DNA of 35,824 nt from Jimgerdemannia flammicorona (GCA_003990765.1 RBNJ01000237.1:1-35824), one strand, 5' to 3'; shown: positions 274 to 27,281, counted from the stretch's first letter. The notes: generated by a model from the sequence alone, not told the origin. A program made the numbers and translations.

Positions 274-310
274 ATGCTTCAAGGATGAGATCATCTATTC
301 AGGAGAAAGT

Positions 311-2865: not shown

Positions 2866-2935
2866 GTTATTTATTATTTAGCTTGAAAGTGATAGATTTA
2901 TCTTAACTTAAATTACTAGCCAATAGATACTAAGT

Positions 2936-3434: not shown

Positions 3435-3543
3435 ATATATATATATATTTAATTTGATTATTTTACTTTAGTATATATATTAATATTAGAACAAGGTTTT
3501 AAAGTACTTAAACCAGAACAACTTATCTATTTAAAATTAAATA

Positions 3544-3698
3544 TATTAAAAATCTAAGTTTCTATTATATATATCTCAATATGTAGTAGTATAGCAAATC
3601 TTTATTTATATCATCAATCTTGATGTATAAAAGGTATAACTTGCTTAATCAATAAACAATTACTTCTTACTTTGCTTATTCTCTCTAACTCTATAATA
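3544..3698 (+). repeat. 5' LTR of copia E
   Basis: Direct repeat of 27650-27799. Confidence 0.9.
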
Positions 3699-3899
3699 AA
3701 TATTATAAGCTCTATTAGTAAAAGTAGATAATAATAAAAACATCTCTTTAATATATACTATATTATATACAAAGAAGATATCAAACTCAGATATATCAAA
3801 TACAAGCTCATTAAGTAATATAAGCAGAATGAATATTAGCATAAGTATGGTCCCAATAGTCATGATGATAACTATTTCTACAGTGGTAGTATTAGTATT

Positions 3900-6800
3900 A
3901 ATAATAATAGTAAAAAGAATAATTTTTATCTTTAATGGTAAGAATTATACTATATAAGTATACTATATAAAGAATCTCTTAGAGGAATGTAGTTTGGAGA
4001 ACTACTGAAAGTCATAGATACAAATAATAAGATATAATATTATAAAGAATTATAAAGTGCTAAGAGAGATTATGTTGATCCTTTTAAATATATAAATAAA
4101 ACTCATCATCAATACTATAATAGTGAATAAAGTCTGGAAGATCTTATATAATTACCACTAACAAATATCAGTATCAAAAAAATTCTATCTAAAAGTACAA
4201 CTATTTAATCTCTAAATAAAGTCCAAAGAGAGCAACTGAGACTATACTGATTAAGTTGATGAGCTAGTAAATTAAGTAAACTCTCTTATATCTATATTAG
4301 TAAATACTATCAAGGATGAAGACAAGATTCTAGCTCTTATACAAGACCTTTTTGAGATATATAATATTATTATTATCTATGAGAGAATCTAGCAAGATAT
4401 TGAACTATAAGTATATTATCACAAGTCTTTTAAATGAGAAATTGAGACTGGGTGATAACAATAATAAAGATGATGAGAAAGCATTCTAACAGAATATATA
4501 AATAAGTCAAAGATAAGTAAGATAAAGGACAAGAGCAAAGCCAGTAGTATAATAGTTAGTATAATAGTTAGCAAGTCAAATTTAATAGTAAATACTTCTA
4601 CTATAATAAGCATGAATACTATAAGTAAGACTGTAACTATAAAAAGAAGAAAAAGAATAGTTAAGAACAATAGCAGACAAATATAGTAGATACAAATAAT
4701 GATGATAGCAGAGGTCTATTCTTTACAGAGATGGCAATCTATTTATATATAAAGAGAGATAAAGAAGTAAATTTAAAAAAAAAAATTCAGATGGCAAAAA
4801 ATAGTAATACTAATATCAATAGTACTAGTACTAATATAAGCTATATACCAAGTATTTATATATATAGTGAAGAAGTATGGCTTATAGATTCTAGTATAAT
4901 ATAATATATAATAGTATACTATAAGTAGTTCTCTATATATAAGAAGTTCAAGTACTCCATATCTATCAAACTGGATGATAATAATGTTATATATACCCAA
5001 AGCAATGATAATATTAGTATATACCTATATAGAAATATTGACAAACCTTTAGATATCTTTGTAGATATATTGTATATATCAGATATAAGTAAGAACCTCT
5101 TCTCAATAGGCCAGATGATGGCTTGAAGAAATAGAGAAGTAAATATATATCCAAACAGTATAACAGTAATCAATCTGAAGAATAATAAGGAGTTAATATA
5201 TGTATTAAACAAGGAGAATCTATATGTAATTAATAATATATCAAATAGTATATTATATATATTCTATATATAACTATAACTGGAAAGAATCTCTAATATA
5301 TATATATAGTATGAATATTTAGGACACATTAGTAGAATATGCTTAGAATAGATGATAAGAAGTAGTTCAGTGAGAGGATTACTGGGCTATATATCTCTGA
5401 ACTTCTTTTGTATAGATATATAGCAAATAAGACTTTCTGGTAATCTTTTCAGAAATAGATAAAGTGAGTAACTAATATTTTCAATATAATATATATAGAT
5501 ATCAATGACTCTATATATACTTCAATATACTCTGAGAAGAGATACTTTATTATCTTTATTAATGATTATACTTATAAAATCTATATATACTTTCTTATAG
5601 TAAAGAATGTAATATTTAAAAATTTAAAATAATTATGGAGAATGAAATAGAATATAAAATATAGACTCTATACTCAGATAACAGTAAGGAATATATCAAC
5701 AAAGCTTTTAGACAATTCTTGAGGAATTATGGTATTTAATACTCTATGATAGCTCTCTATATATCTTAGTAGAATAGTATAGCAGAATACTTTAATTGAA
5801 TAATAGTAGAGATAACTCATACAATGATAAATATGACTAGCTTACCACACTCCTTTTGGACTGAAGTAGTGAATATAGTAGTATATACTCAAAATTATTA
5901 TATTTCTCAAGCTCTAAGTAAGGAATCTGATAATAATCAATAATCTAGAAATAATACTAATCTTATCCCTAAAGAATTGTAGAGTAGATCTAAGTCTGAT
6001 ATTTTGCATCTATATATATTTAAAAGTGAGGCTTATATTCTAGATAAGAGTAGTAATAAAGATTAGTTTGAGTCTAAGATATATAATTATATATTCCTTA
6101 AATATAATAGGGTGATATATAGATTATAAAACTTGTAAAAACACTATATAATTATCTCTCATAATGTTCAGTTCAAGGAGACCAAGTAGGAAATTTATGT
6201 AGAAATTTCTATCTCTATATCCAATCCAACAGTATAGTCAGTAATATCTATACTAACTTCAAAGATAAGTAGAATAATCTCTATATCTAGAACAGTAGTT
6301 AAAATTCCAATAAAGGTATCTTTGATATCTACACTAGTACCAGTACAGTCTATATCTATATCAATAATACTATTAGAGCTAAGAATTATAGAAATTACAG
6401 ATAAGAATAATAAAGAGGATACCTCTCCAAAGAGAAAAAAGAAGTATAGATTAAGACTGAATAGTGAAATTTAAGTAGATTTAGGAGGTTATTGAGATCT
6501 ATCTAAGACATTCTGTCATAATAGCAAATATCATATAAACTATATCTGTGAGTATACCTATATAGCAATGACTAATAAGCCAGTAAACTATAATGAAGCC
6601 ATTCACTCAGATAATAAGAAAGAGTGAAAAAAGGCTATAAATAAGAAGTGTAGTTTGCTTATTAAAAATAGTACTAGGATCTAGTTTCTTCTCTGATAAA
6701 TAGGCAATCTATTAGATCTCAGTAGGTCTATAAAATCAAATAATAACTAAGATAGTATAGAGTAATACAAGGTCCAATTTGTGACAAAGAGATATTCACA

Positions 6801-7313
6801 AAACTTTAATATCAACTATAATAAGATCTTCTCCCTGATATTTAAGCTTACTTTACTTAGAATACTTCTTATAATTAGAGCTAAATATAACTATGAAATC
6901 CACTAAATAGATATCAAGATAGTATTTCTAAATAAAAATATAAATACTGAACTATATGTATATTAATTATAAGGATATAAACTATATGATAATAAGTAAA
7001 AGAAGCTCATATATAAATTATATAAAAATCTCTATAGTATCAAACATACAGCAAAGTTGTAGAATTAAAAATCAATAAATATCTTATAAAAGACAATTGA
7101 TTCAAGTATTACAAAGTATATTTATATATATACTTATTATATATTCTCAGGAATAGTATATTTAAAAATTTGGATTAATGATATCATTTTAGTTAGAACA
7201 ATGAGTGAAATTAATAAAGTAAAGATAGTATTATATAAAGAGTTTAAAATAATAGATATGGGTAATAAATCTTTTTTTTTTGAAGATATTCATCATATGT
7301 AATAGAAGTATAT
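3900..7313 (+). pseudogene. Copia E gag-protease-integrase-RT, heavily decayed
   Basis: Remnant motifs: FNGKNYTI* (~3931), WLIDSS (~4879, protease), SDNSKEY (~5672, integrase), H*IDIKIVFLN (~6901, from HQMDIKTAFLN) and WINDII (~7171, from WVDD). Start coordinate is approximate. Confidence 0.8.
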
Positions 7314-7782
7314 TGTAATGTAGCAGATGCTTACTCTTAAAAGTACGTCAGATTTCTATATCTTGAAAACTTGACTGTTCTGACTCTTGCAGAGTCTCTT
7401 GAAGTTGCATGAGAGGGTGGGTGAGTTCGAAGTGTATCTGCCCACAGGCTTACTAGTTCCTTTGCTATCTCTTTGCTTTTTGAACTATTTTGATCTGAGG
7501 TTTATTCACTCAAAGATACTGGGTTATTTATACAAGTTTGCTAGCTATGAGATAGTTACTGAGTTACATGGCTAAGTTATGAGTCATTTAACACTTTGTG
7601 AAATGTTTCACCAGTTGCAAAATGCTATACTATATTGGGAAGCTCAATCTTACACTTTGCAAAATATTTAGCAAGTTGTGAAATCAAGAACTGTTAGCTA
7701 TGTGGCTATACTACTTTGGGACTGGGTGTGATCAAGTGTCTATTCTCTATTTCCTTCTTCTGAATCTGGCTATACTGTCACA
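7314..7782 (-). repeat. 3' LTR of B (469 bp)
   Basis: Direct repeat of 13563-14024. Adjacent PPT AGGAGGAAG at 7784-7792 on the minus strand. Confidence 0.97.
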
Positions 7783-7819
7783 ACTTCCTCCTGAATAGAT
7801 GATCTTGTCCCTAAAGCAT

Positions 7820-8281
7820 CTATTCAAACTCCCAAGCTTCAACGGTCTGTATGGTCTTATATTGCACGATTTGTTGCATTACTGTTTCCCAATAGTGTTG
7901 CCTGACTCGGTCGAAGTCTGAGGGAGTTACTCCTCACAGGTGGGCTAGTGCTGATTCATCCTCTTAGAATAGCTTGTAGATTCTTTTGGCAATGGTGATC
8001 TGGGGATAGGAGAGCTGGCATTCTGCAATCCAATTTTCTTTGGTCATTTCTGGGTCTTGGTTGAGTACTTGGCCAAGTTTGAAGTACTCTTGGAATTCAT
8101 TCCAATGCTGATAGGCCTTGAAGTGTGAGATCTGAGAGAGATGAGTCTGCACAATGCTTTGGATACTATCATAAGACTCCTCTATGGTTGGAGACTCAGT
8201 GGTGTACCATTGTCTCTTGATGGCTCTTTGGGCAGCACTAGTGATCTTGAGTACTATCACAGTACTTTTGTTACTGGCCAT
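7820..8281 (-). pseudogene. ORF3 of B, ~153 aa, unknown function, two in-frame stops
   Basis: The ORF-track entry 7964..8281 continues in frame through TAA and TGA to ...VEAWEFE* at 7820. Its ATG overlaps the last pol codons (TAT TAT GGC CAG TAA). Homologues are present in A and C. Confidence 0.85.
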
Positions 8282-11200
8282 AATATTTCTTGAGTCAGTT
8301 TCGATGAATGGTGGTGGGGATTATTATGCCTGAGGGTTTTCGTAGCCAAAAGGTGGTTCCTTTTATATCTTGCACAAGGTAAGGTCCTTCCTACTTGGGC
8401 TCCAGTTTTTGTGACCATGAAGCTTCAACCATATTCCAATACACCAGAACTTTGTCTCCTATCTTGATAATCTCCAAGGGTTTGTGGGTCTTTTCTGCAT
8501 TCCTCCATTGTAGTGTCTGCACCTTGGTTATGTAATTCTCAGCCTTCTTTCTGATTTGGTGTAGTCTCCATATTTCCATGTCCACATGTTTCCATACAGC
8601 ATCTCCATTGGATGATAAGGTTCTCAGAGAACATTCTTCTCCGAATAGCATTTCTTGAGGGGTAAAGTGGGTACTTTGTGATCGGATATCCCGGAGAGCA
8701 GATAATGCTATTGGTAGATAGTGATCCCAGTTCTCGTAGTTATCGCAGATCTTGGCAATAACGTTCTTAAGGATTTTGTTGGTCCTTTCTACTTGTCCAT
8801 TTCCTTGAAGGTGATATGCTGTGGTCCGAATATGCTGGATCTTGTACTTTTTATAGAGAACTTTGAAGAACTGGTTCATGAATTCTGTTCCTCTATCTGT
8901 AGTTACTTGTGTTGGGGTCTTGAACTGGCAGATGATTTCCTTGTGGAAGAAATTGGCAATTGACTGTATATTGGCTTCCATAAGAAGTCCCACTTCTATC
9001 CATTTTGTAAAGAGGTCTACAATGACAATGATGTATCAGTTGCCAGTCAAGGTCAAGGGTAGGGGGCCGATTATATCCATTGCAATGTAGGCAAATAGTA
9101 CTGGTTCTATGTATACTGATCCTGAGGCTTGATTTCATTGATCTTGTTTCTGTTTCTGGCATTTGTTGCAGGTCTTGATGAATTGTCTGATATCTTCCTC
9201 TATCCCTGGCCACCATATTGTTCTCCTTGCCTTGTCATATATATTCGTTCCTCCTAGATGGCCAAGTTCATGTACTGATTTCATTGCTTGCTCCTTCTTG
9301 TATTCTGGTATGACTAGTAGTTTTCCTTTCTTCAGTGTTTCTCTGTCAGTTTTGAATTATTTCCATGTTCTGTTGATAATCATTTGTGTCCATTCTTCCA
9401 GATGTTGGGGCATCTTTCACTGTCCCAGATATGTGATAATTCCATAGTAGAGCTCCTTATTCATGATGATTTTATAGGGGTGGGGTCTTTCAGGGTGTCC
9501 GTGAGAGGGCATCAGCATTAGCATTGGTTCTTCCAGAGCAGTGTATGATAGTTACATCATAAGCTTGCAACTTCATTATCCATCTGGCATAGATTCCTTT
9601 GGGTTGTCTAGTTGTCAGTAGTTAGGTGAGAGCTGAGTGGTCTGTTTGGATGGTGAAGTGTCTTCCAGCCAAGTAGTAGTGAAACTTTTCTATAGCCCAG
9701 ATGACTGCGAGGCATTCCAACTTGTAGGATTCATATTCTTTTTCAGCTCCTCGGGTTCCATGGCTGAGGTATACAATGACATACTCCACTTTATCTTTCT
9801 TTTGAGCTAGGACTGCTCCTAGTCCTTGTGCACTTGCATCAGTCTGTAGGATGAATTCTAGAGTCCAGTCAGGTCTTCTGAGGATGAGTGCCTGGGTCAG
9901 TCTGACCTTGAGTTCATCAAATGCTTTTTGTTGTTTACTAGTCCACTGGAACTTGGTATCCTTCTTGTTAAGTTTGTAGATTGGTTCTGCAATATTAGAA
10001 AATCCTCTAATAAATCTGTGATAATAGGAGGTGAGTTTCATGAAGGCTTGGGCTTCCGTAACAGTGGTGGGTCTTGGGTATGCTGCCACTGCTTATATCT
10101 TGAGGGGGTCTGTGTATATTCCATCTCAGTTGATGATGTGGCTGAGATTGAAGATCTCGATTTCTGCAAACTTGCACTTCTTGGGTTTGATGTAAAGGCC
10201 ATGTTGTCTTAGTCTCTCCATTATCTGCTGTATGTGCTGCAGATATTCCTCAGGTGTCTTGCTGTAAATGATTATATCATTAACATAGACCATCATCCAT
10301 CTTCCCATATCATAGTGGAAAATTTTGTTCATTATTCACTGGAAACTTGCTGGTGCATTGCACATTCCAAATGGTATTCATAGATAGACATAGGTTCCAT
10401 CTGGAGTGATGAAAGCTGACTTTTCACTTGCTATGTCTGTGAGTCCGATTTGGTGGAATCCTGAGTATAAGTCCAAGGTGCTGTAGTATTGTGCTTTATC
10501 TCCCAGTGTTATGAGGATGTCATTGATGAGGGGCAGTGATTAGCGATCCTTCTTGGTAACTATGTTGAGGTTTCTGTAGTCGACACAGAGTCTTGGGGTG
10601 AATTCTCCAGGCTTGCTATCTTTTTTCAGGGCCAGTACAACAGGTGAGGACCAGGGACTGCTGGCTTCTTTAATGATATCAGCTTCTTCCATCTGCTTGA
10701 TTTCTTCTCTGAGCCATTCTTGGTAGGCTGGCAGGACATGTCTTGCTTTCTGATAAATTGGTTCAGTGTCTCCAGTATCTACTTCGTGATAGTAGTGTGG
10801 GGTCTTCCCTTTGATATCCTTGAAATCTGTGGCAAGGACATCTTCGAATTCGTGGAGTATTTTCTTGAGTTCTTTCTTGAGTGGAAATTCATTTCCAATG
10901 GTGTAGCTGTGCTTGCTTGTGTTTTCCTCCTTCTTATGCTTGAGTTTGGTGATCTTGGTGTTGGCAAATACTCCTCTTCCTGTGGATCTGAATCCATTCT
11001 TTCCTCTTCTTATTTCCTCCAGCTTCTTAACTTCTATGATCTTTGGTTATAGGATTGGAAAGATCAATATTTGCACCAATTGGTTCTTCTTCTTGACTGG
11101 AAATGAGATTATAGGATTGTAATTCCTAGCAATAAGTAGAATTTCTCCGGTGTAGTCTAAATTGATGACTCCTCCTTCAATTGTAATTTTGCTCCTAGCC

Positions 11201-13448
11201 AGACTGCTTCTTGTCTTGAGAATCCTGACATGATCCTTTGGGATGGTCATCTCCAATCCAGTTGCAAGTAGGGTGGTTGTCTGGGATTCCAGTATGGTCT
11301 CTTCTACTGTAGCGATGTCCATTCGAGCTGCATTTTCTGACTTATATTCTGGCAAGGCTGCATCAGGGTGGATCTTTCAGATCTTGACCTTGATTTCTTC
11401 TTCATCATCACTGTCCTCCAGGAGAGCTGGTGGTTCATCATCTTCCTCCTTCTCTTCTTCCCTGATCTGTTTTTCGAGGGCTTTCTGCCTTCTTTTCTGG
11501 TGGACCTTCCTGATTCTGATGGTGCACTGGTAGCAATCATTGACATGCTCCATGCAGTACATTTTGATCCCATGAGGACAGACTCCTTGTGGGGCATAAC
11601 CTTCTGTGATCTTCTTATATCATTCTTCTTCACTCATCCATCCACTTTCTTCTTCTTTGGAGTAGTCACCATATAAGCTTCCTCTTGCTTGCTCTTTTCT
11701 TCCTCCATATCAGACAGGACTCCTTTGTTGATATTGATGGGAATTCATATCTTCTGTCCCTGGTAGGTGATCTGCATCTTCTGGGCATTGAGATTGATTA
11801 CTGCCTTGGCTTTGTGAAGCCATTGATTGCCAATAAGGATTTCATAGTTGGTGGCATTGGTTACAATTATATCTACTGAGATGGTTGCTTCTCCAATCTT
11901 GATGGGAACATCTCAGATCTTTCCCAGAGGTGTGGCTCTTGTACCATCGGCTGTGATGAATACTAGCTTAGTTGCTTCTTCCACATCCCAACCTAGGCGG
12001 TCTGCTGCCTTCTTGCTGAGGAGATATCCTCCTGCTCCCGTATCAATGATGGCCTCAAAGATTCTATCTTTGATTTGGCATATTGCATATGCAGAGGTTT
12101 TGTGATTGTCCTCACTTTCTTCTCCTGAGTCCTCTTGAACATTATTGGTCTTGGTTATCTTCTATCTCTGTTTCTTAGTTGTTTCGGCAAGTCCAAACCT
12201 CATTTGCTGTCTGAATGTTGAGATTTCTGCAAGCTGACCAAAGGTTGCATTGACCTTTTGTTGGCTGAGGTCCTTTAAGATATCATACTTGAAGGTCTTA
12301 GTCTTGCAAAGCTTCTTTTCTTTTTCTCCTTCAATGGCTGGAGTGGTTCCTCAGATGATATCTTAAACTGCTTGCTTCAGCTCTGTATCTTGGTCCATCT
12401 CTTTGGCTTGGCTTTCTGTAGCAGTTTCCATCTGCTTTTCCACTGGGCTCTTCTTGGGTCTTCCTGGTGGTCTCTTGTAGGGCTCTTTGTGAGCATCCTT
12501 CTTAGTGGTCTGAGCAGGATAGACCTCCCATTCTTCTTCATCAGAATCTCCAATCTCCTTGAAGGTAATTATATTGGTCTGCTCCTTGTTTCATATAGCA
12601 TTGCTTGGTTGAGCCTTGTGCTTGGTTTCGCTTATACATTCATAGGAGTAGTGGCCTTCTCCTCTGCAAGTATAGCAGGTGCCTTTCTTCTTATCTGAGG
12701 TGGTGGCAAACTTCTGGACAGAGCGGTGGTCTCTTCTTCAAATTTCCTTTACCATGTCTCCCAGGTGGGCAGTCATTTTGGCAAACCTTTTGGCGAGTTC
12801 CTCCATAGGGTCACTGTTCTTTTGCTGCTCTGTAGCTTTTGGCTGAGGTGTATTTCAATTGATCATTGTGGTAGGGATCACACTAGTTGTCTTGAGTGCC
12901 TCAATTCTGACTCCTGTGACCCTTTTCATTATATGGTCTTGTGGATGTCTGGCTATCCAGTATCGCTGAGCATAGGTGACCTTCTGTAGTAGATCCAGAA
13001 TTACTGGTAATGAGCGGATGGTCATGGCTATTTCTGAGTGGACTCCTTTCATAAAGGTTGCCTCAGCTACTTGATCTCGGATAGCAGCATCATAATCTGC
13101 CAGGATTATCTGATATTGAATTCTGGTATAGAATGTGTTTAGATCCTTGCTTATTCCTTGGCATATTGTATTGAGCTGATCCTTCAGGGCTTGCTTGATC
13201 TCGTCTGTATAATATGTATTTCAGAGCCAGATCTTCTGTAATATCAGTATAGCATTAGCATCATTTCCTGCATGGGTTGCAGCTGTGAATGCTGCTCTGG
13301 CAGGGCCTCATAGGCTAAAGAACATGAGGGCTACTTGCTGTGCTGCTGTCAGGGTCCTTACAGTGGCATACTGCTCGAAATCATCAATGAAGATGATGAT
13401 TGATTCATCTGAGATATATCTGTGGAATACTGGTGGTCTCATATTCAT
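8271..13448 (-). pseudogene. Gag-pol polyprotein of B, inactivated by stops and frameshifts
   Basis: Gag starts MNMRPPVFH. Zinc knuckle CYTCRGEGHYSYEC (~12636-12677), protease AIIDTGAG (~12031-12054), RT LCVDYRNLN and MVYVNDII, RNase H FILQTDAS...LECLAVIWA...TDH...NADALS, integrase HELGH...CNKC, DIIGP, TDRGTEF, GQVERTN and GPY. No chromodomain seen. Confidence 0.95.
10978..11393 (-). pseudogene. dut: dUTPase domain within pol of B, between protease and RT
   Basis: All five trimeric dUTPase motifs are recognisable: AARMDI (AGxDL), KTRSSLA, GGVINLDYTGEI, QLVQIL (RIAQL) and RGKNGFRSTG (RGxxGFGSTG). Confidence 0.93.
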
Positions 13449-13546
13449 CTTGTCTGGGTATTGGGGCTCGGTTTGTATGGTCATTCAAGTGGTGGTGGTT
13501 GTTTGTTATTCAGCTTGAAAGTGAGGGATTCATCTTGAATCACCAG

Positions 13547-13559
13547 CCAATGGGCACCA
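13547..13559 (-). promoter_or_regulatory. Primer-binding site of B
   Basis: Minus strand reads ...TTACA-ACT-TGGTGCCCATTGG. Decayed copies occur in C (15161-15173) and D (~2920-2932). Confidence 0.75.
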
Positions 13560-13562
13560 AGT

Positions 13563-14024
13563 TGTAATATAGCAGATGCTTACTCTTGAAAGTACGTCAG
13601 ATTTCTGTATCTTGAAAACTTCTGACTCTCGCAGAGTCTGTTGAAGTTGCATGGGAGAGTGGGTGAGTTCAAAGTGTATCTGCCCACAGGCTTACTAGTT
13701 CCTTTGCTATCTCTTTGCTTTTTGAACTATTTTGATCTGAGGTTTATTCACTTGAAGATACTGGGTTATTTATATAAGTTTGCTAGCTATGAGATGGTTA
13801 CTGGGTTATGTGGCTAAGTTATGAGTTATTTAACACTTTGCAAAATGTTTTGCCAGTTGTGAAATGCTATACTATATTGGGAAGCTCGATCTTGCACTTT
13901 GTGAAATATTTAGCAAGTTGTGAAATCGAGAACTGTTATCTATGTGGCTATACTACTTTGGGACTGAGTATGATCAAGTGTCTATTCTCTATTTCCTTCT
14001 TCCGAATCTGGCTATACCATCACA
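13563..14024 (-). repeat. 5' LTR of B (462 bp, 7-bp deletion relative to the 3' LTR)
   Basis: Direct repeat of 7314-7782. Confidence 0.97.
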
Positions 14025-14028
14025 ATAT

Positions 14029-14726
14029 ATACTATATTCTTGAGCCAAAAAACCTATATTAAGATTATACTAAAATAATTTAGTATGAGTGAATACAAAT
14101 CTGTCAGAATCTCTATAGAGTTATCTGTAAGGTTAAAGAAGTCCAGTAATACTATACTCAAAACTTTGTCCAGAACTAATAATATTCTCTATTGATAAGT
14201 AGTGAGATCTCTAATACATATATCTTATACTTAGAACAAGATCTGATATATTATATATAGTCAACAAAGTAGCACAATACTTATTCTACTATAACAATAT
14301 GTATTAGATAGCAATCAAACATATTTTGCAGTATATTAAAAATATAGTATACTATATACTCAGTTTGGATAATAATAATAAGAGATAAAGTGGGAGTACT
14401 ATAAGGTTATCTAGTATATATATATAATACTAATTAGATTAATAATCTAGATGATAGACAGTCTATGACTGAATACCTCTTTAAATCACAAAGAAGTAAT
14501 TTTATAGCAAATATATAAGCAATCTTCAGTAATAACATCATCTATATAAGCAGAATATCAAGTATTATCTATAGTGACAAAATAAGCTATATAGCTTTAA
14601 GAACTTCTAAAAGAGTTAGGATATAATTAATAGTATTCTATATTACTTTTACAAGATAACCAGTCTATGATTGCTCTAGTAAAGAACTCTATATTATACT
14701 AGAATGAAGTATATTGATATATATAG
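14029..14726 (+). pseudogene. Copia E RT C-terminus and RNase H, middle fragment
   Basis: Remnants *AEYQV (~14547, from EAEYQA), QDNQSMIAL (~14652) and RMKYIDI (14701-14721, from RTKHIDI), cut by insertion of C. Confidence 0.85.
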
Positions 14727-15157
14727 TGTGACAGTTGATCCAAATTAGAAATATGAATTAGAGGAATTAGACATTTGATCACAGTATCTGAACCCAATTC
14801 CTAATATAGTATAGTTATATAAATAGCAGTTATAGAACTTTGCTACTAGCAAATACTTTGCTATTAACAAACACTTTACTACTAGTAAATACTTTACCAT
14901 TAGAAAAATGACTTACAACATAGCTACCTTATAGCTAGCAAACTTATATAAATAATCTAGTATCTTAGAGTGAATAAACCTCAGATCAAAATAGTTTAAA
15001 GCAAAGAGAAAGTAAAGAAACTAGTAAGCCTATAGGCAGATATACTTCAAACTCACTCACCCCTGTATCCCAAGGACTCTATAGAGTCAAAGAAGATCAA
15101 GTTTTTAAGGTACAGAAATCCAACATACTTCCAAGGTTAAGGGTCTACTATATTACA
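14727..15157 (+). repeat. 5' LTR of C
   Basis: TGTGACAG...TATTACA. Direct repeat of 26847-27277. Confidence 0.95.
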
Positions 15158-15268
15158 ACTTAGTACCTATTGGCTAGTGATTTAAGATGAATCTCTCACT
15201 TTCAAGCTGAACAATAAATAACCACCACCTAAACAACTATATAAATTGAACTAAGATATCTAGACAAG

Positions 15269-18200
15269 ATGGATATGAGACTATCAGTATTCCATAGTTA
15301 TATTTCAGATGAGTCAATTATTATATTTATTGATGATTTCAAGTAATATGCTATTATAAGGGGCCTGACAGCAAGACAGCAAGTAACTCTCATGCCCTTT
15401 AGTCTCCAAGGACCAGTAAGAGCAGCATTCACAGCTATAATCTATGTAGAAAATGATGATGATACTATGCTAGCAGCACAGAAGACCTTGCTCTAAGCCA
15501 CATACTATACAGATGTGATCAAGCAAGTCCTGAAGGATCAGCTCAATACAACTTGCCAAGAAATAAGTGAGAATCTAAATATATTCTACACCAGAATCTG
15601 ATATCAGATAATACTTGCAGATTATACTACCACAATCAGGGATCAAGTAGCCAAAGTAACCTTTATAAAAGGAATCTATTCAGAGATAGCTCTGGCCATC
15701 TACTTATCACCAATAGTCCTGGATCTGATACAAAAGGTCACCTATGCTCAGCAATACTAGATAGCCAGACACCCATAAGACAATATAATAGAGACAGTTA
15801 CTGGAGTCAGAATCAAAGCATCCAAGGTAATTAGTGTGATCTATATCACAGTGATCAATTAAAATACACCTCAGCCAAGAGCTATTGAATAGTAGAGGAA
15901 TAGTGAACCTATTAAGGAACTTACCAGAAAGTTCATCAAAATAACAGCTCATCTAGAAGATGTGGTAAAGGAAATTAAAGGAAGAGACTACTACTCAGTT
16001 CAAAAATTTGCCATCACCTCAGACAAGAAGAGAGGTACTTGCTATACTTGTGGAGAAGAGGACCACTACTCATATGAATGTATAAGTGAAACCAAGCATA
16101 AGGTATAGCCAAGCAATACTACTTTAAATAAGGAATAGGCCAACATCATTATCTTTGAAGAAATTGAAGAGTCTGATGAAGAGGAGTGGGAGGTCTATTC
16201 TGTATAGACTACTAAAAAGAATGTCTACAAAGAACTCTACAAGAGATCACCAGAAAGACCTAAGAAGAACTCAGTGGAAAAACAGATAGAAACTGCTACA
16301 GAAAGTCAAGGTGAAGAAACAGATCAAGATATGGAGCTAGAACAAGCTATTCAAGATATCATCTGAGGAACCACTCTAGTCAGTGAAGGAGAAAAGATGA
16401 AGAAGCTTTGTAAAACCAAGACCTTTAAGTATGATATCTTTAAGAATCTCAGTCAATAAAAGGTCAATGTAACCTTCAGCCAGCTGGTAGAAATATCTAC
16501 ATTCTGATAGCAAATGAGATATGGACTTGCTGAGACAACTAAGAAGTAAGGTTGGAAGATAACCAAGGCCAACAATGTTCAAGAAGATTCAGGAGAAGAA
16601 AGCAAAGACAACTGTAAGACCTCTGCCTATACAATCAGCCAGATTGAAGATAGAATCTTTGAAGCCATTATTGATACAGGAGCAGGAGAATGACTCCTCA
16701 GTAAGAAAGCAGCAGATTGCCTAGGTTGGGAAGTTGAGGAAGCAATCAAATTGGTGTTTGTCATAGCAGATGGTACAAGAGCCACACCTCTGAAAAAGAT
16801 CTGAGATATTCCATCAAGTTTGGAGGAATAACTATTCCAGTGGATATAATAATAACCAATACAACTAACTATGATATCCTCATTAGCAATCAATAGCTTT
16901 ATAAAGCCAAGGTAGTAATTGATCTAAATGTCCAGAAGATGCAGATCACCTACCAAGATCAGAAGATGTGAATTCCCATCAATATTAATAAAGAAGTCCT
17001 GTCTAAGATGGAGGAAGAAGAAAGTTAGCAAGAAGAAGTCTATATGGTAACTACTCAGAAAAAGAAGAAAGTCAGATAGATTAATAAAGAGAACTAGTAC
17101 AAGAAGATTGCAGAAGAATATACACTATAAGGAGTTTACCCCTATGGAATAAAAATATACTGCAGTGAGTACATTAATGACTGCTACCAATGTAGCATTC
17201 GTATCTGAAAGATCTATCAGGAAAGAAGACAGAAGACTTTTGAAAAACAGGCAAAAGAAGAGAAGGTGGAAGAGGATGATGAACCACCAACCCTCCTAGA
17301 GAATAGTAATGATAAAGAAGAAATCAAGGTCAAGATTCAGAGGATCTACCCTAATACAGTCCTATCAGAATACAAGTCAGAAAATACAGCAGGAATGGAT
17401 ATTACTACAGTAGAAGAAACTATACTGGAGTCCTAGACAACCACTCTACTCACAACTGATCTGGAGATGACCATTCTAAAGAACTATATCAGAATCCTCA
17501 AGATAAGAAGTAGTCTGGCTAAGAGCAAAATTACCATTAAAGGAGGAGTTATTAATTCAGATTATATTGGAGAAATACTACTCATTGCTAGGAATTACAA
17601 TTCTACAATTTCATTTCCAATTAAGAAGAAGGACTAACTGGCACAGATGTTGATTTTCTCAGTTCTTCAGTCAAGAATCATAGAAGTCAAGAAGTTGGAG
17701 GAAACAGAAAGAGGAAGGAAAGGATTCAGATCTACAGAAAGAGGAGTATTTGTAAGTACCAAGATCACTGAGCTGAAGTACAAGAAGGAGGAAACTACAG
17801 ACAAGTATAGCTATACTATTGGAAATGAATTCCTACTCAAGATGGAGCTCTAGAAAATACTATATAAATTTGATGACATTCTCACTACAGACTTCATAGA
17901 TATCAAAGAAAAGACTCCACACTACTATCATGATATAGATACTGGAGATACCAAACCAATTTACCAAAAGGCAAGACCTGTTATACCAGCCTACTGAGAG
18001 TGGCTCAGAGAAGAAATCAAGCAGATGGAAGAAGCTGGTATCAATAAGGAGGCCAGTAGCCCCTGGTCTTCACCAGTTGTACTAGCTCTAAAAAAAGGAA
18101 GCAAGTCTGGAGGATTCATCTCAAGACTCTGTATTGATTACAGAAAGCTCAATATAGTTACCAAGAAGGATCACCAACCACTGCCCCTCATCAATGATAT

Positions 18201-18858
18201 TCTTATAACTCTGGGAGATGAAGTACAGTACTACAGTACCTTGGATCTATACTGAGGATTCCACCAAATCAGACTCACAGAAACAGCAAGTAAGAAATCA
18301 GCCTTCATCACTCCAGACAGAATCTATATCTACTTGCAAATACTATTCAGAATGTGCAAGTTTCCAGTGAATGATAAATAAAATCTTCCACTATGATATG
18401 AGAAGATAGATGATGGTTTATGTAGATGATGTTATTATCTATAACAAGATAGCTAAGGAATATCTGCAGTATATTCAGCAGATAATAAAAAAGCTAAGAT
18501 AGCATAGTCTTTATATCAAGTCCAAGAAGTGCAAGTTTATGAAAATTGAGATTATCTATCTTGACCATATCATCAATCAAAATGGAATACACACAGACTC
18601 TCTCAAGATATAAGCAGTAGCAGCATACCCAAGATCTACTACTATTACTGAAGCCCAAGTCTTCATGAGACTTACCTCATATTACTGCTGATTTATCAGA
18701 GGATTCTCCAATATTGCAGGCCCAATCTATGAACTCAATAAGAAGAATACTAAGTTCCAATAGACTGGCAGGCAACAGAAAGTATTCAATGAGCTTAAGG
18801 TTAGATTGACTCAGGCACCCATCCTCAGAAGACCTGATTAGACTCAAGAATTCATCCT
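15269..18858 (+). pseudogene. Gag-PR-dUTPase-RT of C (5' part of gag-pol)
   Basis: CYTCGEEDHYSYEC (~16039-16080), AIIDTGAG (~16664), LCIDYRKLN, YVDD at 18419-18430. Interrupted at the RNase H start (QEFIL). Confidence 0.93.
17322..17739 (+). pseudogene. dut: dUTPase domain of C
   Basis: AGMDI, IRSSLA, GGVINSDYIGEI, *LAQML and RGRKGFRSTE. Confidence 0.92.
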
Positions 18859-18905
18859 GGGGCACCTTTCTCCTGTACAATTCACATTATACAAAACTTC
18901 AAGCA

Positions 18906-20970
18906 ATGGTTTTTGATACAACTAGGAGAAAAGGTACTATCATTATGGCATCAAGCAAGAGTTCTGATGGGCATACTGGGTCAGAGAGATCTGGGGCTTT
19001 TGGCTGGCAGAATGTGGGGAGGGGTTATGGCCTGGAGATAGGGGCCTTTGGAGGGTCGAAGAGTGGCAAGGGCTCTGGAGGAGGTCCAGTGTTAGGTGGT
19101 AATGGGGGGAGGACTGGCCCCTCAAGCTTTGCAGACAAGGTGAAGAGAAGTGGATGGCCAGCTGGAGACAGGGCTGGTGCTGCTGCAGGGAAGGACAAGG
19201 TGAGCCTTGGGAGGGGGGGAGGTCCTCAGGCTGGAGGTAGGAGCATAGGATCTGGAGGTATTGTGGCTGGGGGTGAGACTGCTGATGGAGGTGTGATGGA
19301 AAATCAGGAAAAAAAAAGAGATGTGATGGCTGATGATGGAGTGGGGCTGGGGTTACTGATTTGGAAGGGGGACCTGGCCAATGGTATGATAGGGCTAGTG
19401 GTGGCACCATTACTCAAGAAGTCGGTTTCGGAGTTTGTGGCTACCTTGTGCTTCCAGGGCTTAGCAGTGATGGCAAGGATAGTTCTGGGGCTTATCTCAC
19501 AGCAGGTGGCTGGGGTGGCCTCAGTGAAGTTTCTGAGGGGGCTGGAGGGGGTAGAGGTAGGCTTTGAGGAGGCAGGCCCACTGGATGAGGCGATGAAGAC
19601 TAGAGTGATGATTGGTGAAGTAGTGGTCCCTATAGTGCACTGCCTTAGGTAGAACCCCAGAGTGGTACAGCTGCTAGTCAAAGGAGTACCTATGATGATA
19701 AAGATTAAGACTAGGAGGAGGGTTGAGGAGGTAGTGGCAGAGTATGGTGATGTAGTGGATATCAGATTCTGAGTGTGGGAGGGGACAGCAATTAGGACAG
19801 GTGATGTGAATGTCAGGATTAGGCTGGTGGAGAAGGAGGCCACTGGAAAGGCAAATGACTGGCCTTCAGTACTGATGTGGGGGGCTGTTGTCTGTAGAGT
19901 GTCAAGGGTGAAGGAGAGTGAAGAGGAGGAGGAGGACTTGTTGGAAGTGCTGAAAGAGTTAAGTAGTGCAGTGGAATGGAGGGTGAAGGCCTGTAAGCTC
20001 TTTGAGGAGACAATACATCTGGAGGTTGTGGAGGGGAAGTGGATCTATATGGACAAGAGGCAGTGGGAGTGGGCACAGGGGTGCAGGAGGCAGAGAGAGC
20101 TTTTGGTAAGTATGAATATGGAGGTAAAGAAGAAGGCAGAGGGGGCTGAGGTGACTGGGGGTATCAAAGCCAGGTCTGGGCTGGTAAAGGAGAGGGGGAG
20201 GTGGAGGCAGGCAAGGTAGGAGCTGGGAAGGTGCCAAGCAAGGACCCATATACTGACAGCACTTTTGAGGTCTGGGAGCAGGAATTGGATGCCACTACCC
20301 CCCCTCTTATCAGGAGGGGCCTGGCTGTGAAGAGAAGGATGACAGAGGATGTACTGATGAAGGGAGCCCAGCGAGTGTAATTTGGGGTCCCTGATGTAGC
20401 AGAAGGGGCTAGGTGGTGGTAGTTGGTGAGGATGAGCTAGTAGATGTCCCTGAGGAGGAGTGGGATGAGGCTGCCAGTATAGGTGCTGACACTATGATGT
20501 TGGATGCAGGATGGCCAGGGACTCTGAGTGGGAAGGAGGTGGAGAACTTGCTGTGGATGAGCAAGGTGATGGACAACCTCACAGCTGAGGCTTTGGGAGA
20601 AGTGGACCTGTGGGCAATGTCTGATGAGCATTGGGTACAGATGCTGTATAGAGATGGAGTGGTGGAAGCACTGAGGGCAGAGATTCTTACAATCTTCCTG
20701 GAGGAGGAGGGTTATGAGGTTGATGAGATGAGGAAGGTGGAGCTGATGGTGGTTGCAGATGAGAGGGCAGCCTACTGTTGGGCTGAGCATCATGGTTTAC
20801 AGCTCTGGAGGGAGGTCTGTCTGGAGTATTGTGAGGACTTTGAGGAGAGAGAAGATGGGGCAATGGTAGAACTTCTGGAAGAGTTAGAGGCATGGGAAGC
20901 TGGAGAAAGGGAACTAGCTGCTGAACATGTCTTGGACTTGGTGCAGGAGGAGAAGAATGTGGACTTATAG
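18906..20970 (+). pseudogene. ORF1 of LINE F (Gly-rich N-terminus, RRM-like core, acidic C-terminus), with stops and frameshifts
   Basis: The ORF-track pieces 18906-19652, 19773-20219 and 20413-20970 are linked by TAG/TGA readthrough or a frameshift. VQLLVKGVP...VAEYGDVVDI...RTGDVNVRI resembles the L1/Tx1 ORF1 RRM. The start could be the ATG at 18946. Confidence 0.75.
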
Positions 20971-21001
20971 AGGATGGGATTGCTACTTAACATTATTTCT
21001 T

Positions 21002-24000
21002 ATGAATAGTACAACTAACATTTTCTCTGTGAATGTAAATGGGTTGAGAGGACCTGGGCAGCATAAGAACATTTTTACTTAGCTCAAGGGATTGGAGGCT
21101 GATCTCTTTTTACTACAGGATATTCAATGTGAGGATGACGATGATTGGGTGAAGTGGACTAGGGAATGGGGTGGGGCTACTGCTTGGTTTGGTAAAGTGG
21201 CGATTCTGGTGAGGAAGAGTAGAGGAGACTTAGAGGAAATCAGAAGCTGGGGTGATCGCTTGGTCTGAGGAGATTGGCAGTGGCCAGGGTGGGAGTTAGT
21301 GAAAGTTGGCTCCTGCTACTGCCCTGCAGTTAGGGGTGAGAGGATTGTATGGATTGAGGAGCTGCTGAAGGAGAGTATTCTCTTGGAGGAAGGGGTTGAT
21401 GTTCTTGGTGGGGATTTTAATATGGTTCAGGATCAGCATCTGGACAAAACTGATGGAGAGAGAAGTGTAGAGGAGAGAAGTAGAGGTCTGAATATATGGG
21501 AGGAGGTAGGGAAGTTGAGCTCCTTAGGGGATATAGGCAGAACATATTGGGGCAATGCCAGGGTCTACACACATTGGGTAAATAGCTTAGGTACAAGGAT
21601 TGATTGGATTCTGATAGCAGAGTATTGGGGTTCTGATGTTTGGAAGATGTTGGAGGTAGAGTGCTAACAGACACCCACAGATAATCCCTCATGCCTCCAG
21701 ACAAGAACCTTCGCCTGAATGTCCTCTACCCATAAGTTCCACAACCCCTTCTCAGCCAGCAGGGAGGAGTTAAGACACCAATGTCTGGGTCCATCTCCAC
21801 TCCCCCCAAACTGCCCCTGCCCCAACAGTTCCCAATGATCAGACCATGGGCACATAAGATTAAAAGAGGCAGTGAGGGTCTATTGGGGGGGAGCAGGTAG
21901 AGATGCTGGGAGGCAGAGGAGGGAGCGCACAAGATGTGCTTCCAACAGATTGAGGAGACTGCAAATGGATTGGGTGGATTTGCTTACTGCTGATGGAGTG
22001 GAGGATTGGAGAATAGAGCAGGCTAAATTGAAGATAGTGGAACTGTGACAGGTATTGAGAGAAGAGGAGGAGACTCATATGCATGGAATGGCTGCTAGGC
22101 TATGGTGGCAGGGGCTTGAGGAGGGTGAGCAGCCTACTAGGTACTTATCAAGACTCCTCAAAGCCAGGAGGGTGCAACATCAGTGGGATGGAATCTTAGA
22201 TGCCGATGGGGACATGGTACATAGCACACAATAAATCTTGGGGTTTTGTAGGAGAGATGGCAGAGTCTGTGGAGTGAGGGGGAAGGGGGTACTGATGGGG
22301 CAGTGATTGCTGATATACTAGAGAAGTGGGAGCTGCCACAAGTAGCTAGACTGGGTGACTTGATCTTACTGGTGCAAAGAGAGGAGATCCAGAGTGTCCT
22401 TGCAGCAACTAAGCTTGGAACAGCACCTGGGGAGGATGGGTTACCATGGGACTTCTGAAAGATAATGATAATAGTCCCTGGTGTTTTGGGTGAGATGACT
22501 GCTCTCTGTGACCATGTTCTTCAGAGTGGTGAGTGGATTGGAGAGCAGAACCTTGGGCTGGTGGCCTTATTGTATAAAGACAAGGGGAAGAGAGAAGACT
22601 GGAAGAACTGGAGGCCAATCATGCTTCTGGATATAGACAGGAAGATGGTGACTAAGGTGATTGTTGCAAGGCTGCAGAAAGTTGCCCAACAGATACTGTG
22701 GGAGGAGCAGCAGGGTTTTATTGGAGGCAGACTTATAAGAGATAGAACTGCATAGGTGTATGGTGTTATTGAAGAGACCTGGACTTGTAGACTGGATGGA
22801 AGGTTGGTCTTTTTGGACCAGAAGAAGGCCTATGACCATGTATGTGGGTCTGGCTGGGCAAGGTGTTGGATCGAATAGGTATTCCCCCAAGATTTTGAGC
22901 ATCTATGTTGAATCTGCTAGAGAGCAGTTGGGTGGTACTGATGTATAATGGCTACTAAGATTTGACATTCTCCTTGGGTAGAGGAGTTCCTCAGGGGGAC
23001 CCTCTGTCTCTTATTCTCTATGCCCTTTTGTTGGAGCCATTGATGGATAGAATTCATAGGAAGGTGAAGGGGCTCTCTATTTATGGTATAGTGTGGAAGG
23101 TAGGGGCCTTTGCGGATGATATGGTGGTTGGACTTGGGTCTGTGGCAGATGTCGAGGTGCTTAAGGAGACAGTGGAATGGTATGAGGCTCACTTGGGGGT
23201 GAAGCTCAACTGATATAAGTGTGAGATAATGGTGCTTAGTAATGAGCTAGTGGGTAAGGATGTCATTGGAACAATTGTCCCTACTGGTGCAGCAGTGTAG
23301 TATCTGAGCATCTTCCTTTCTGTATATGGTTCTGTCTTACCACAAGTATGGTGGGAGAACCAGGTGACTATATGGGGAGAGGCCCTTCGAAGTTGGGGAG
23401 GCCACCATATCTCTCTGGCAGGGTGGGTGACAATTCTGAATGTATACTGGTTCTCCAAGCTGTGGTATATGACCTATCACCTTGATTTCCCAGCTTGGGT
23501 AGTGAAGAGGCTGATAAAGATGGCTAGAGATTAGATCTGAGTAGGGAGGAGGTCTCAGATAGGGTGGGATACTCTTGCAACACTAGTGGTCAGGGGAAGT
23601 CTGGGCCTTGTGGACTTCCCTAAGAGGCTGCACTGCTTGCAAGCCTGGTGGTTGAAGAGAGCTGCTAAATTGCAGGGAGGGGGTTGGGTGCTACTGCTGA
23701 GAAAGGTGTAGGAGATGAGAACCTCCCCTTGAGGGTTCTCTGGAGATCTACTCTCTTTGGTAGGGCTGAATGGAACTCAGTGGCTGCAGTTTAAGAGTTT
23801 TTGGTAGGGGGTGGTAGATAGAGCACACTGCATTGGCCTGCACTGGCAAGGCAATGAGGGGGAGGTGGTTTGGGGGCCTGATATGTGGCGATGGGATAGA
23901 CTGCTCCTGGGGAGTGCTCTACTTGATATATTTAATTTTGGGGATAGAGTGGAGTATCAGCAGGGTCTTGGCCAGGATCTTTGGTCCAGTGGCTGGCAGG

Positions 24001-24659
24001 CAGCAGAGATCAGCAAGGAGTGGGACTGGGCAGATATCTGGTCTTAGAGTACTGAGGTGCAGAGGTGGCTTCCTCCCAAGTTCTGGGTGATATGATAGTG
24101 AATACTGCAGAGGAATGTTATGTTAAACTTTCACACTGGACATCTGGTGGAGAGTGGCCATTATGATTGTGAGGAGTGTTATAATGTAGAGCAAGCAGGG
24201 AGAATTATACAGACACCAGAACATTGGCTGAGAGAGTGTGAGATCTTGAGAGACTTTTGGATAGAAATAGGGGATATATTAGATGTGGGGCAGAGGCTGG
24301 TGAGTGTGGGAGGCCACTGGGAGGACTTGAGGTCTCAGCTAGTGGGTGGGGTGGAGGATAGCTGGCTCACTATAGGGTGGGTATTGGCAGTGTGGGTGGG
24401 ATTGACAGGACATTGGCTTTTTGTATTTGAGGAGGGGTAGCAGATAGGGCTGTAGAAGAAGATTTCCTAGTGGGAGGAGCTATTGGGGGATCTGTTGACT
24501 GGATGGTGGGTGGGTTGGAGTCCTCAGGGTGGACAATATTGCAGTTTGGTGACAAGGATCTGTGTGCAGAGTGGAGAGAGAGTAGAGATTGTATTAGACA
24601 AAATGGTCTTTTATTGAGAAGGGGTAGATAGGAAGGGCCCCCCTAGGGGGATCAGATAG
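21002..24659 (+). pseudogene. ORF2 of LINE F: AP endonuclease, reverse transcriptase, C-terminal Cys/His motif
   Basis: SVNVNGL, LLQD, GGDFN, RIDW, SDH (inverted), GEQPTRY, APGEDGL, NWRPIMLLDID, QQGF, LDQKKAYD, RGVPQGDPLS, FADD (23109-23120) and CEEC...EHWLREC. No RNase H seen. Confidence 0.95.
21665..21849 (-). other. 185-bp internal inversion in LINE F ORF2
   Basis: The minus strand encodes PWSDHW...GPRHWCLNSSLL. It is bounded by GTGC (21661-21664) and GCAC (21850-21853). Confidence 0.93.
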
Positions 24660-24723
24660 GAGGAGGGATCACTGTATTTATATGGGATAGATGGGCATAA
24701 TAAAGGAAGGAAGTCCAAGTGAC

Positions 24724-24777
<54 letters not shown>

Positions 24778-24789
24778 AGAATTCATCCT

Positions 24790-26363: not shown

Positions 26364-26805
26364 TACCATAGCCCTCAAGATTACTAGTACTACACAATGA
26401 GCCATAGAAAGACAGTAGTGTTCTACTGAGTCACCAACTATGGAGGAATCTTTCAATAGTATCCAGAGTATAGTATAAACATACTTGTTATAAATTTTAC
26501 ATTTCAAGATATACCAGGACTGAAATAAGTTTTAAGAATATTTCAAGCTCAGGCAACTGCTAAATTTACAACCAGAAATGAGAAAAGAAGACTGGATCTG
26601 AGAATGCCAGCTCTCTCATACTCAGATTACTATTGCCAAATGAGTAAACAAGTTGTTTAAAGAAGATGAAATGGCTCTAGCTTATCTCTAAGAAGTAACT
26701 CTAGTAGACTTTAGATATATTAGAAGACAATATTGAGAGAATATAATGATGTAAATTATATAGTACAAAGAGATACAAATTATAGAAGCCTGGGAGTTTG
26801 AGTGA
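26344..26805 (+). pseudogene. ORF3 of C, same 462-nt length as in B
   Basis: Start is ATA (decayed ATG). Reads ...EYFKLRQLLNLQPEMRKEDWI*ECQLSHTQITIAK*VNKLFKEDEMALAYL...IEAWEFE* with no indels relative to B. Confidence 0.85.
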
Positions 26806-26846
26806 ATAGAATGTCTCAGAAATGAATCACCTATTCAGAAGGAAGT

Positions 26847-27277: not shown

Positions 27278-27281
27278 ATAG

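Follow-up and report, generated by a model that had tools for sequence, protein, structure and literature searches.

Variable arrays of partly palindromic 18-21-bp modules as a candidate fast-evolving part of the U3 promoter in a Ty3/gypsy retrotransposon family of Jimgerdemannia flammicorona

The DNA considered here is a 35,824-nucleotide stretch of Jimgerdemannia flammicorona (GCA_003990765.1, RBNJ01000237.1:1-35824), called the window in what follows. Self-comparison and reading showed it to be a nest of decayed transposable elements, among them the elements A, B, C and D and a solo long terminal repeat (LTR) of one Ty3/gypsy family. Element B encodes RNase H and integrase domains, arranged as in Ty3/gypsy elements, and after the integrase has a 153-codon open reading frame, ORF3 (8281-7823). 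The segment between protease and reverse transcriptase (RT) of this element (11050-11376, minus strand) reads, by eye from its translation, like a dUTPase. Element D is short and non-autonomous, with full LTRs and a C-type leader. At the same place in all LTRs of the family, within the U3 region, lies an array of related 18-21-bp units, and these arrays are interpreted here, at odds slightly better than even (about 0.55), as enhancer-like modules for host dimeric factors that are linked to ORF3 by position only.

The first-pass annotation of the window had described four tandem 18-bp units in the C LTR, the first of them containing a perfect 7-1-7 dyad, and this holds: TTTGCTA-C-TAGCAAA (14839-14853) recurs in the partner LTR as TTTGCTA-T-TAGCAAA (26977-26991). 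Tandem Repeats Finder recovered period-18 arrays in C at 14837-14895 (3.3 copies, 80% matches, score 83) and 26967-27027 (3.4 copies, 88%, score 94), and in D at 3220-3311 (5.1 copies, 70%, score 79) and, in the 3' LTR, 1331-1401 (4.1 copies, score 58). The motif TTTGCTANTAGCAAA occurs with two mismatches or fewer in 7 of the 8 C units, and window-wide 9 times against 0.36 expected. Because the C unit is itself a dyad, every unit junction makes a second one, TAGCAAA-TAC-TTTGCTA, and the C array thus consists of 7-bp half-sites in alternating orientation. The D and solo LTRs carry six to seven 18-bp units each, where about six had been proposed, and the palindrome pointed out in the D 5' LTR was confirmed as TTTTAACAATTGTTAAAA, a perfect 18-bp palindrome at 3241-3258 (1 match, 0 expected). 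The pairs of imperfect units ascribed to A and B are likewise present, as two pairs (2+2) of 19-20-bp units with a spacer between them. The A/B, solo and D units have in common a CA-NN-TG centre with T-rich left and A-rich right flanks, and one unit of A (472-486) differs from the C dyad by a single mismatch. Judged by sequence, the arrays are homologous variants and not motifs with nothing in common.

The copies compared have been altered heavily and in one direction. The two C LTRs are 85% identical and differ by 60 transitions and 3 transversions, and the paired LTRs of B by 31 and 2. Changes in the elements fall mostly at CpA, and the observed/expected ratio of CpG is 0.00-0.23 in the elements versus 1.07 in a gene-like region of the window. 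The elements have been hypermutated from C to T, and comparisons between copies were therefore based on transversions. Some AT-only "perfect" palindromes, for example in D, may therefore be products of decay.

All seven window LTRs align over their whole length, with the variable array between conserved blocks. The order within U3 is a conserved 5' block of ~100 bp, the array, the heptamer TGACTCA (mostly as ATGACTCAT), and a proximal promoter with the TATA box TATAAATA, which is followed by R-U5. The array makes up about 70-130 bp of each roughly 220-290-bp U3, and alignment across 7 of 7 LTRs holds for the first ~100 bp of U3 and for the 60-70 bp ahead of the TATA box. The proposal that U3 regions are palindrome arrays that switch with subfamily is thus right in that the arrays differ by type, and too broad in that the array is only part of U3. 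R-U5 is indeed common to the copies while U3 differs (A/B versus C, 0.05 transversion distance in R-U5), and the two ends of U3 are conserved as well. Between A/B and C the corresponding distances are 0.14-0.16 in the U3 5' block, 0.22-0.23 in the array and 0.02 in the proximal promoter; between all types they are 0.22-0.36 in the array, 0.02-0.14 in the proximal promoter and 0.02-0.07 in R-U5. Unit number and unit sequence differ by subfamily with the flanks conserved, as in enhancer-type repeats of U3.

The heptamer TGACTCA, or ATGACTCAT, corresponds to a Gcn4/AP-1-type basic leucine zipper (bZIP) site. It lies directly 3' of the array in 4 of 7 window LTRs (A, the 3' LTRs of B and C, and the solo LTR) and in the 5' LTR of the undecayed relative L001 described below; in the 5' LTRs of B, C and D the same position holds variants one or two transitions away. 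Its position is identical in the LTR alignment, which marks it as a conserved promoter position. Matches to the motif number 11 in the window against 5.87 expected, so that the motif alone is not rare. The TATA box follows about 32-50 bp past the array end, and arrays lie upstream of it in both LTRs of B and of C.

A metagenome scan with the ORF3 alignment yielded, out of 112 pattern matches, one locus (L001), a 6479-bp contig with intact CpGs that holds a near-intact element. In its 5' LTR, four units in a 21-42-21-bp register form an A/B-type array; each has GCCA-AR-TGGC, in two of them as TGCCA-AA-TGGCA and in one as TCGCCA-AG-TGGCGA. Its 3' end has a solo-like array, TCTACA-AA-TGTAGA followed by at least four identical 18-bp units CTTAGCA-GA-TGTAGAG. 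A strict CA-NN-TG is found in 4 of 4 A/B-type units and 4 of 4 listed 3' units of this locus, in 4 of 5 listed solo units, in 2 of 7 matches of the D 5' LTR (the rest being compatible with decay) and in no C-type unit. The U3 types at the two ends of L001 differ, which points to a chimeric assembly or to a recombinant or tandem element, and only local linkage was used from it. Positions 1-540 hold an ORF3 tail and an A/B-type LTR; positions 6297-6479 hold a different ORF3 type and a U3 that joins a C-like 5' block to the solo-like array. The integrase of this locus (4516-5838 region) begins at its own ATG and overlaps the end of a gag-protease-RT frame (843-4619), and its ORF3 (5795-6256) overlaps the end of the last integrase frame (5425-5838). 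A 24-mer from the LTR promoter had no matches in genome_contigs and viral_contigs.

Whether the dyads exceed chance was approached in several ways. The window as a whole contains 74 perfect inverted repeats with 7-bp arms and spacers of 0-5, against 32.3 +/- 6.6 expected. Column permutation that keeps the tandem structure gave P values of 0.058 and 0.028 for the C 5' and 3' LTRs, 0.031 for the D 5' LTR, 0.079 for the solo LTR, and 0.021 and 0.053 for A. The single-strand folding of the undecayed arrays stands out more clearly, with z of -4.80 (5') and -6.35 (3') in L001 and 0 of 200 shuffles as good. Covariation between arms was scored on 28 in-register units (27 distinct) retained from 41 regular-expression matches to CA-NN-TG, a set that excludes all five C-type matches, off-register matches and duplicates. 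Arm positions 3-7 were complementary in 85 of 135 cells versus 73.2 +/- 4.1 when right arms were re-dealt (P=0.004, in a test that treats related units as independent and is to that extent anti-conservative), with three complementary pair types at arm position 4 and two at position 3. Few units are perfect dyads and most are imperfect. Our reading is that dyad symmetry is a real and recurrent, though imperfect and statistically modest, property of the module. The first-pass suggestion of phased sites for a dimeric binding protein is accordingly plausible on the strength of the dyads in undecayed L001 and of the arm covariation, and is tempered by the least decayed units, for which the covariation gives P=0.11. 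The symmetry is not lost where decay is absent, and perfect dyads persist in L001.

The impression that ORF3 had diverged more between B and C than pol was well founded, and it extends to U3. Identity between B and C is about 80% over gag-pol and 65-68% over ORF3 and U3. The ORF3-U3 block has diverged 4-5 times as much between the two as gag-pol has. Counted per 60 alignment columns, B-C transversions average 1.64 in gag-pol (0-2 in the integrase), rise to 4-10 from 8306, and return to 1-2 at about 7542. Both borders are sharp, the one 25 bp before the ORF3 start and the other beside the TATA box, near the TATA/R border. Purine/pyrimidine site patterns in gag-pol number 455 for B=C, 59 for C=L001 and 74 for B=L001, and change to 27, 47 and 15, respectively, in ORF3 plus the U3 5' block. 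This discordance shows that the divergence of ORF3 and U3 is not just a faster rate, and the 3' block of C or of B therefore derives from another lineage by recombination. The idea of ORF3 and U3 as an exchangeable block gains support from these borders and site patterns.

LTR types tell a similar story. For U3 they are A/B, C, and D with the solo LTR; for R-U5 they are A, B and the solo LTR on one side and C and the D 5' LTR on the other. The solo LTR joins a D-like U3 (transversion distance 0.03 in the 5' block) to an R-U5 of the A/B kind (0.02-0.03), the R-U5 of the D 5' LTR resembles that of C (0.03), and L001 joins an A/B-type U3 to a third R-U5 type. U3 and R-U5 types assort independently, as retrovirus-like replication with strand transfer during reverse transcription predicts. 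In Onsen, the first template switch, in R, is where the majority of LTR recombinants originate (PMC5668417). Recombination between co-packaged Onsen RNAs is alike in producing mosaic LTRs with junctions at the first switch and crossovers in coding sequence; it differs in that recombination here is deduced from old decayed copies and one metagenome contig, not from new insertions (PMC5668417).

ORF3 of element B is 80% identical to an intact, full-length database protein of 153 amino acids, with at least 8 further, mostly partial relatives among those listed, and an intact ORF3 is also present in the L001 copy. It is thus an accessory frame between pol and the 3' LTR that is conserved in intact relatives. 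A second subfamily of 11 proteins (P0014, P0017-P0026; 20-27% identity to the first) has a longer tail and shares a motif around R-I/V-Y-L-L-F-R-D...A-L-x-H-L-K/R-G-I; the first subfamily ends in EAWEFE, and the second also ends acidic and aromatic. A search of representatives gave 6 proteins at E<=0.001, and P0013 and P0015 from that search are repetitive proteins that were set aside as spurious. Matches in the ESM Atlas were to unnamed clusters only, ORF3 queries of viral_contigs had 38 and 18 pattern matches with no relatives among them, and a 32-residue, 47% match in a bacterial record of genome_contigs was taken as chance.

No significant match of ORF3 to a DNA-binding family or fold emerged from Pfam, PDB sequence, Foldseek and VIA searches. 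In Pfam, 3 of 11 members had a sub-threshold hit to HTH_Tnp_Mu_2; the best of these, at E 0.0049, scored 17.4 bits where the cut-off is 20.5. The best PDB sequence match was an asparaginase at E=0.081; Foldseek against the PDB gave none at E<=0.001, its top row (the Sap1 DNA-binding domain, E 0.65, TM 0.21-0.26) being at noise level, and the best Z in a wide VIA search, 6.7, falls inside the noise range for helical models. AlphaFold models are all-helical and of low confidence (predicted local distance difference test, pLDDT, 54.5 for the run on 11 sequences and 48.2 for that on 22). Values of 60-77 are confined to residues about 60-110, and both models are predicted best in a helix-loop-helix-turn-helix segment at 60-113. 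A prediction with two copies of the chain passed its controls, scoring 0.47 against 0.00 for the best of 3 controls, with at least 82% contact agreement between runs and partner pLDDT of at least 65. Among proteins whose solved structure is a pair of one chain, 21 of 30 reach the mark that it passed, and among those solved as single chains 0 of 23 do (17 of 29 and 0 of 30 among eukaryotes). The predicted symmetric interface, residues 40-94, covers the most conserved stretch. By our own residue count the protein is about neutral in charge. As modelled, a dimer would suit a binder of dyads, but it would suit many other roles too.

Three independent ORF3-array pairings bear on whether one follows the other. 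Type-1 ORF3 is paired with an A/B array in A and B and separately at the L001 5' end, whereas type-2-like ORF3 has the C array beside it in C and a solo-like array beside it at the L001 3' end. The latter two are close in the U3 5' block (transversion distance 0.045) and in ORF3 (0.064-0.088), yet their arrays differ. This mismatch counts mildly against a strict lock-and-key relation of ORF3 and array, in a sample far too small for more. The proposal that ORF3 binds the arrays and co-evolves with them has no direct support from this comparison or from DNA-binding homology.

Table 1. Features of the Ty3/gypsy family in the window (coordinates from its first nucleotide)
Feature	Position	Strand	Remarks
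Element A: ORF3 tail and 3' LTR	1-780	+	from self-comparison and reading
ORF3 tail of element A	1-273	+	truncated by window edge
Element A 3' LTR	310-780	+	unit pairs 408-446 and 470-507; TGACTCA 507-513; TATA box 561-568
D 3' LTR	1225-2036	-	truncated in R at 1225; interrupted by solo LTR
D 3' LTR, array parts	about 1330-1417 and 1904-1925	-	
Solo LTR, nested inside D 3' LTR	1418-1903	-	4-bp target duplication ATAT
Solo LTR array	1699-1804	-	TGACTCA 1681-1687; U3 D-like, R-U5 A/B-like
5' LTR of element D	2936-3434	-	array 3222-3329, six to seven 18-bp units
Element B, complete	7311-14025	-	LTRs 7313-7783 and 13562-14025
Element B 3' LTR	7313-7783	-	array about 7587-7685; TGACTCA 7580-7586; TATA box 7525-7532
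ORF3 of element B	7823-8281	-	153 codons, 2 in-frame stops
Element B 5' LTR	13562-14025	-	array about 13829-13927; TAACTCA, a decayed TGACTCA
Element C	14727-27283	+	LTRs 14727-15157 and 26847-27283
Element C 5' LTR	14727-15157	+	TG...CA ends; 4-bp target duplication ATAG
Array in C 5' LTR	14837-14908	+	four 18-bp units; first contains the perfect dyad
TGACTTA in C 5' LTR	14909-14915	+	one transition from TGACTCA
TATAAATA box in C 5' LTR	14947-14954	+	TATA box
ORF3 remnant of element C	26344-26802	+	153 codons, 14 in-frame stops, start codon lost
Element C 3' LTR	26847-27283	+	array 26957-27028; TGACTCA 27029-27035; TATAAATA 27067-27074

Other features of the locus are as follows. The internal region of D (2354-2850), which has no long open frame, is made up of a 160-bp tandem repeat (2.3 copies, score 417) containing sub-repeats of 22-48 bp. 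Elements B and C both sit inside another repeat (6793-7313, 14195-14723, 27278-27422), an uninterrupted copy of which lies at 33719-35075 on the minus strand. Element C is interrupted by a 5.9-kb non-LTR retrotransposon with an endonuclease domain (18859-24774), which carries a poly(A) tail of 48 nt and is flanked by a target duplication of 15 bp (18844-18858 / 24775-24789). This insertion has a strong G-over-C strand bias (GC 0.48-0.54, GC skew +0.33 to +0.51, CpG observed/expected 0.05), and a second, partial copy of it lies at 35100-35822. An open frame with Kelch-repeat matches (29635-30342, plus strand), in the region with a CpG ratio of 1.07, is probably part of a host gene beside the transposon nest.

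On the reading preferred here, the arrays would be the fast-evolving, enhancer-like middle of the U3 promoter in a fungal Ty3/gypsy family that apparently bears a dUTPase. Each array is a tandem series of duplicated 18-21-bp modules with a short dyad at the centre, which has a CA-NN-TG core and partly complementary flanks in A/B, solo and D, and TTTGCTA-N-TAGCAAA as a related variant in C. Transcription from the LTR would be driven by host dimeric transcription factors bound to the modules and to the bZIP site. Through duplication and loss the modules would change in number and sequence, and subfamily differences would also arise through retrovirus-like recombination. The template for U3 is the 3' end of the RNA and that for R-U5 its 5' end, so that first-strand transfer and one switch suffice to move ORF3 and U3 together; an intermolecular first strand transfer, with a template switch at the integrase/ORF3 border, may thus have put R-U5 and gag-pol of one parent together with ORF3 and U3 of the other. 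The first-pass annotation had itself offered host-factor sites merely linked to ORF3 as its alternative, and that alternative fits the observations better than its operator model, with factor binding a prediction in either case. Likeness of the half-sites to RFX X-box, C/EBP, Mcm1 or NFI sites was considered and set aside, since spacing or core bases do not fit.

Several observations weigh against binding by host dimeric factors. Dyad statistics for the six arrays are individually weak (P 0.02-0.08), and the solo array, the least decayed in the window, is the weakest of them. Circular dyad shuffles of single L001 units are not significant (P 0.14-0.92). When covariation is scored only on L001 and the solo LTR, which supply the ten least decayed units, 25 of 50 arm cells are complementary versus 20.5 +/- 3.2 (P=0.11), and the repeated L001 3' unit is a poor dyad (4 of 7 pairs). 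C-type units are without the CA-NN-TG core, so that a single common host factor is not evident. All copies in the window are dead, and L001 may be a chimeric assembly. Lastly, the upstream border of the swapped block coincides with the ORF3 start; that border and the predicted homodimer would suit a functional ORF3-U3 module equally well.

An unlikely alternative is that the arrays have no sequence-specific function: slippage or template-switch duplications would accumulate in the least constrained part of U3, with dyads arising from snap-back copying and, for the copies in the window, from symmetric C-to-T decay. The array is in fact the most variable part of the LTR, its copy number varies freely (2+2, 4, 6-7, and at least 5 identical at the cut end of L001), and the window is palindrome-rich overall. 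The lack of significance in single-unit tests points the same way, as do the low symmetry of the least decayed window LTR and a decay directed at CpA/CpG that is symmetric within a palindrome. By contrast, an array is retained at one position in every type, undecayed L001 included. Three different perfect dyads with 6-bp arms share a CA-NN-TG centre, with complementary changes at two arm positions, and undecayed arrays fold far better than shuffles, all of which sits poorly with a neutral by-product.

On a bolder view, ORF3 would be a homodimeric, element-encoded regulator of its own U3 dyads, whether as DNA or as hairpins in the 3' genomic RNA, and recombination would swap the two between lineages as a cassette. 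This is decidedly improbable in our estimation. Its DNA version, the model proposed in the first-pass annotation, with ORF3 as a sequence-specific binding protein that co-evolves with a swapped array, is a shade more doubtful still. In its favour, the gene adjoins U3, moves with it as one block and is conserved (at least 9 relatives listed for the first subfamily, one of them full length, and 11 members in the second). The homodimer prediction with its conserved interface, the best-predicted helix-loop-helix-turn-helix segment, the sub-threshold HTH_Tnp_Mu_2 hits and the acidic, aromatic tail ending both subfamilies are all what such a regulator might show. Set against this are the failure to match a DNA-binding family or fold, the poor monomer models, the neutral charge, and the related ORF3 and U3 5' blocks of C and the L001 3' end that go with different arrays. 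Physical linkage alone explains the joint transfer.

If the dyads acted in RNA, they would form hairpins at the 3' end of the genomic RNA that serve packaging, dimerisation or export; each hairpin would have a stem of 5 bp and a tetraloop of A-R-R-U type with C-G as its closing pair, and Gag or ORF3 might bind it. This is very unlikely. The arms vary with pairing kept and the loop-proximal CA..TG constant, and T stands opposite G, a G-U pair in sense RNA, in 9 of 27 units at position 5 and in 7 of 27 units at position 7, versus 2 C-A, but decay of the left arm from C to T would also give a T-G excess. For the L001 3' array the folding energy is -38.8 kcal/mol in sense (z -6.35) versus -18.6 in antisense (z -2.19); the bias is inconsistent, however, the L001 5' array giving -45.9 in antisense versus -40.7 in sense, and the arrays of the C 3' LTR, the A 3' LTR and the D 5' LTR also having lower free energy in antisense. 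Some precedent for an RNA role comes from Cer1, whose genomic RNA requires the element's third gene to be exported from the nucleus (PMC10309623). Against it, a position just upstream of the bZIP site and TATA box is typical of an enhancer.

Several known systems are comparable. The Drosophila gypsy element carries an array of Su(Hw) sites; it is alike in being an array of host-factor sites inside a gypsy element and differs in lying in the 5' untranslated region instead of U3. The HTLV protein Tax and its 21-bp repeats form a comparable transactivator system. Tobacco Tnt1 subfamilies reportedly exemplify subfamily-specific U3 regulatory regions, Ty1 and Ty2 are said to contain Gcn4 sites, and regulatory recombination between Ty1 and Ty2 and LTR swapping in soybean are reportedly comparable cases of recombination. 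U3 is described as differing between LTR-retrotransposon subfamilies, with different regulatory motifs (PMC10794571). The two situations are alike in having conserved coding and R-U5 sequences and a variable U3 with short repeated regulatory motifs ahead of the TATA box. The present family differs in that its modules are partly palindromic and that a third gene belongs to the variable block. The Tf2 LTR is bound by the host SREBP Sre1 (PMC1941750), and the basic helix-loop-helix protein Tye7 and three E-boxes act at Ty1/Ty2 (PMC3384299). The likeness is a retrotransposon promoter that combines a bZIP-type site with several short dyad-type sites, CANNTG in part of the units here. In Ty1 the E-boxes are within TYA, downstream of the start site, whereas the arrays here lie in U3, with binding predicted, and the C-type units are without CANNTG.

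For an element-encoded regulator the nearest likeness is the foamy-virus protein Tas/Bel1, which binds response elements (PMC517496, PMC4929722). A 3' accessory gene and repeated U3 elements that could respond to it are present in both; binding by Tas is demonstrated, whereas ORF3 is without similarity to Tas and its binding to the arrays is hypothetical. In insect endogenous retroviruses the third gene (env) and cis-regulatory sequences are reported to co-evolve (PMC12992720). There the state of the third gene and LTR expression change together without a protein that binds the LTR, and the third gene is an envelope gene, whereas ORF3 here is predicted to be a small helical protein.

For this family, LTR-based dating and subfamily calls fail, because the differences between paired LTRs are almost all C-to-T hypermutation and the LTRs are mosaic. 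Should ORF3 prove to bind the arrays, the pair would parallel, in a retrotransposon, the transactivators found in complex retroviruses. It would then be the first known regulator/operator cassette in an LTR retrotransposon outside complex retroviruses, and a small, undescribed protein family would gain a function. If the arrays are host-factor enhancers, the family would offer an ordinary but clean case of modular evolution, in which the promoter diversifies by turnover of units and by swapping of the 3' end, ORF3 together with U3.

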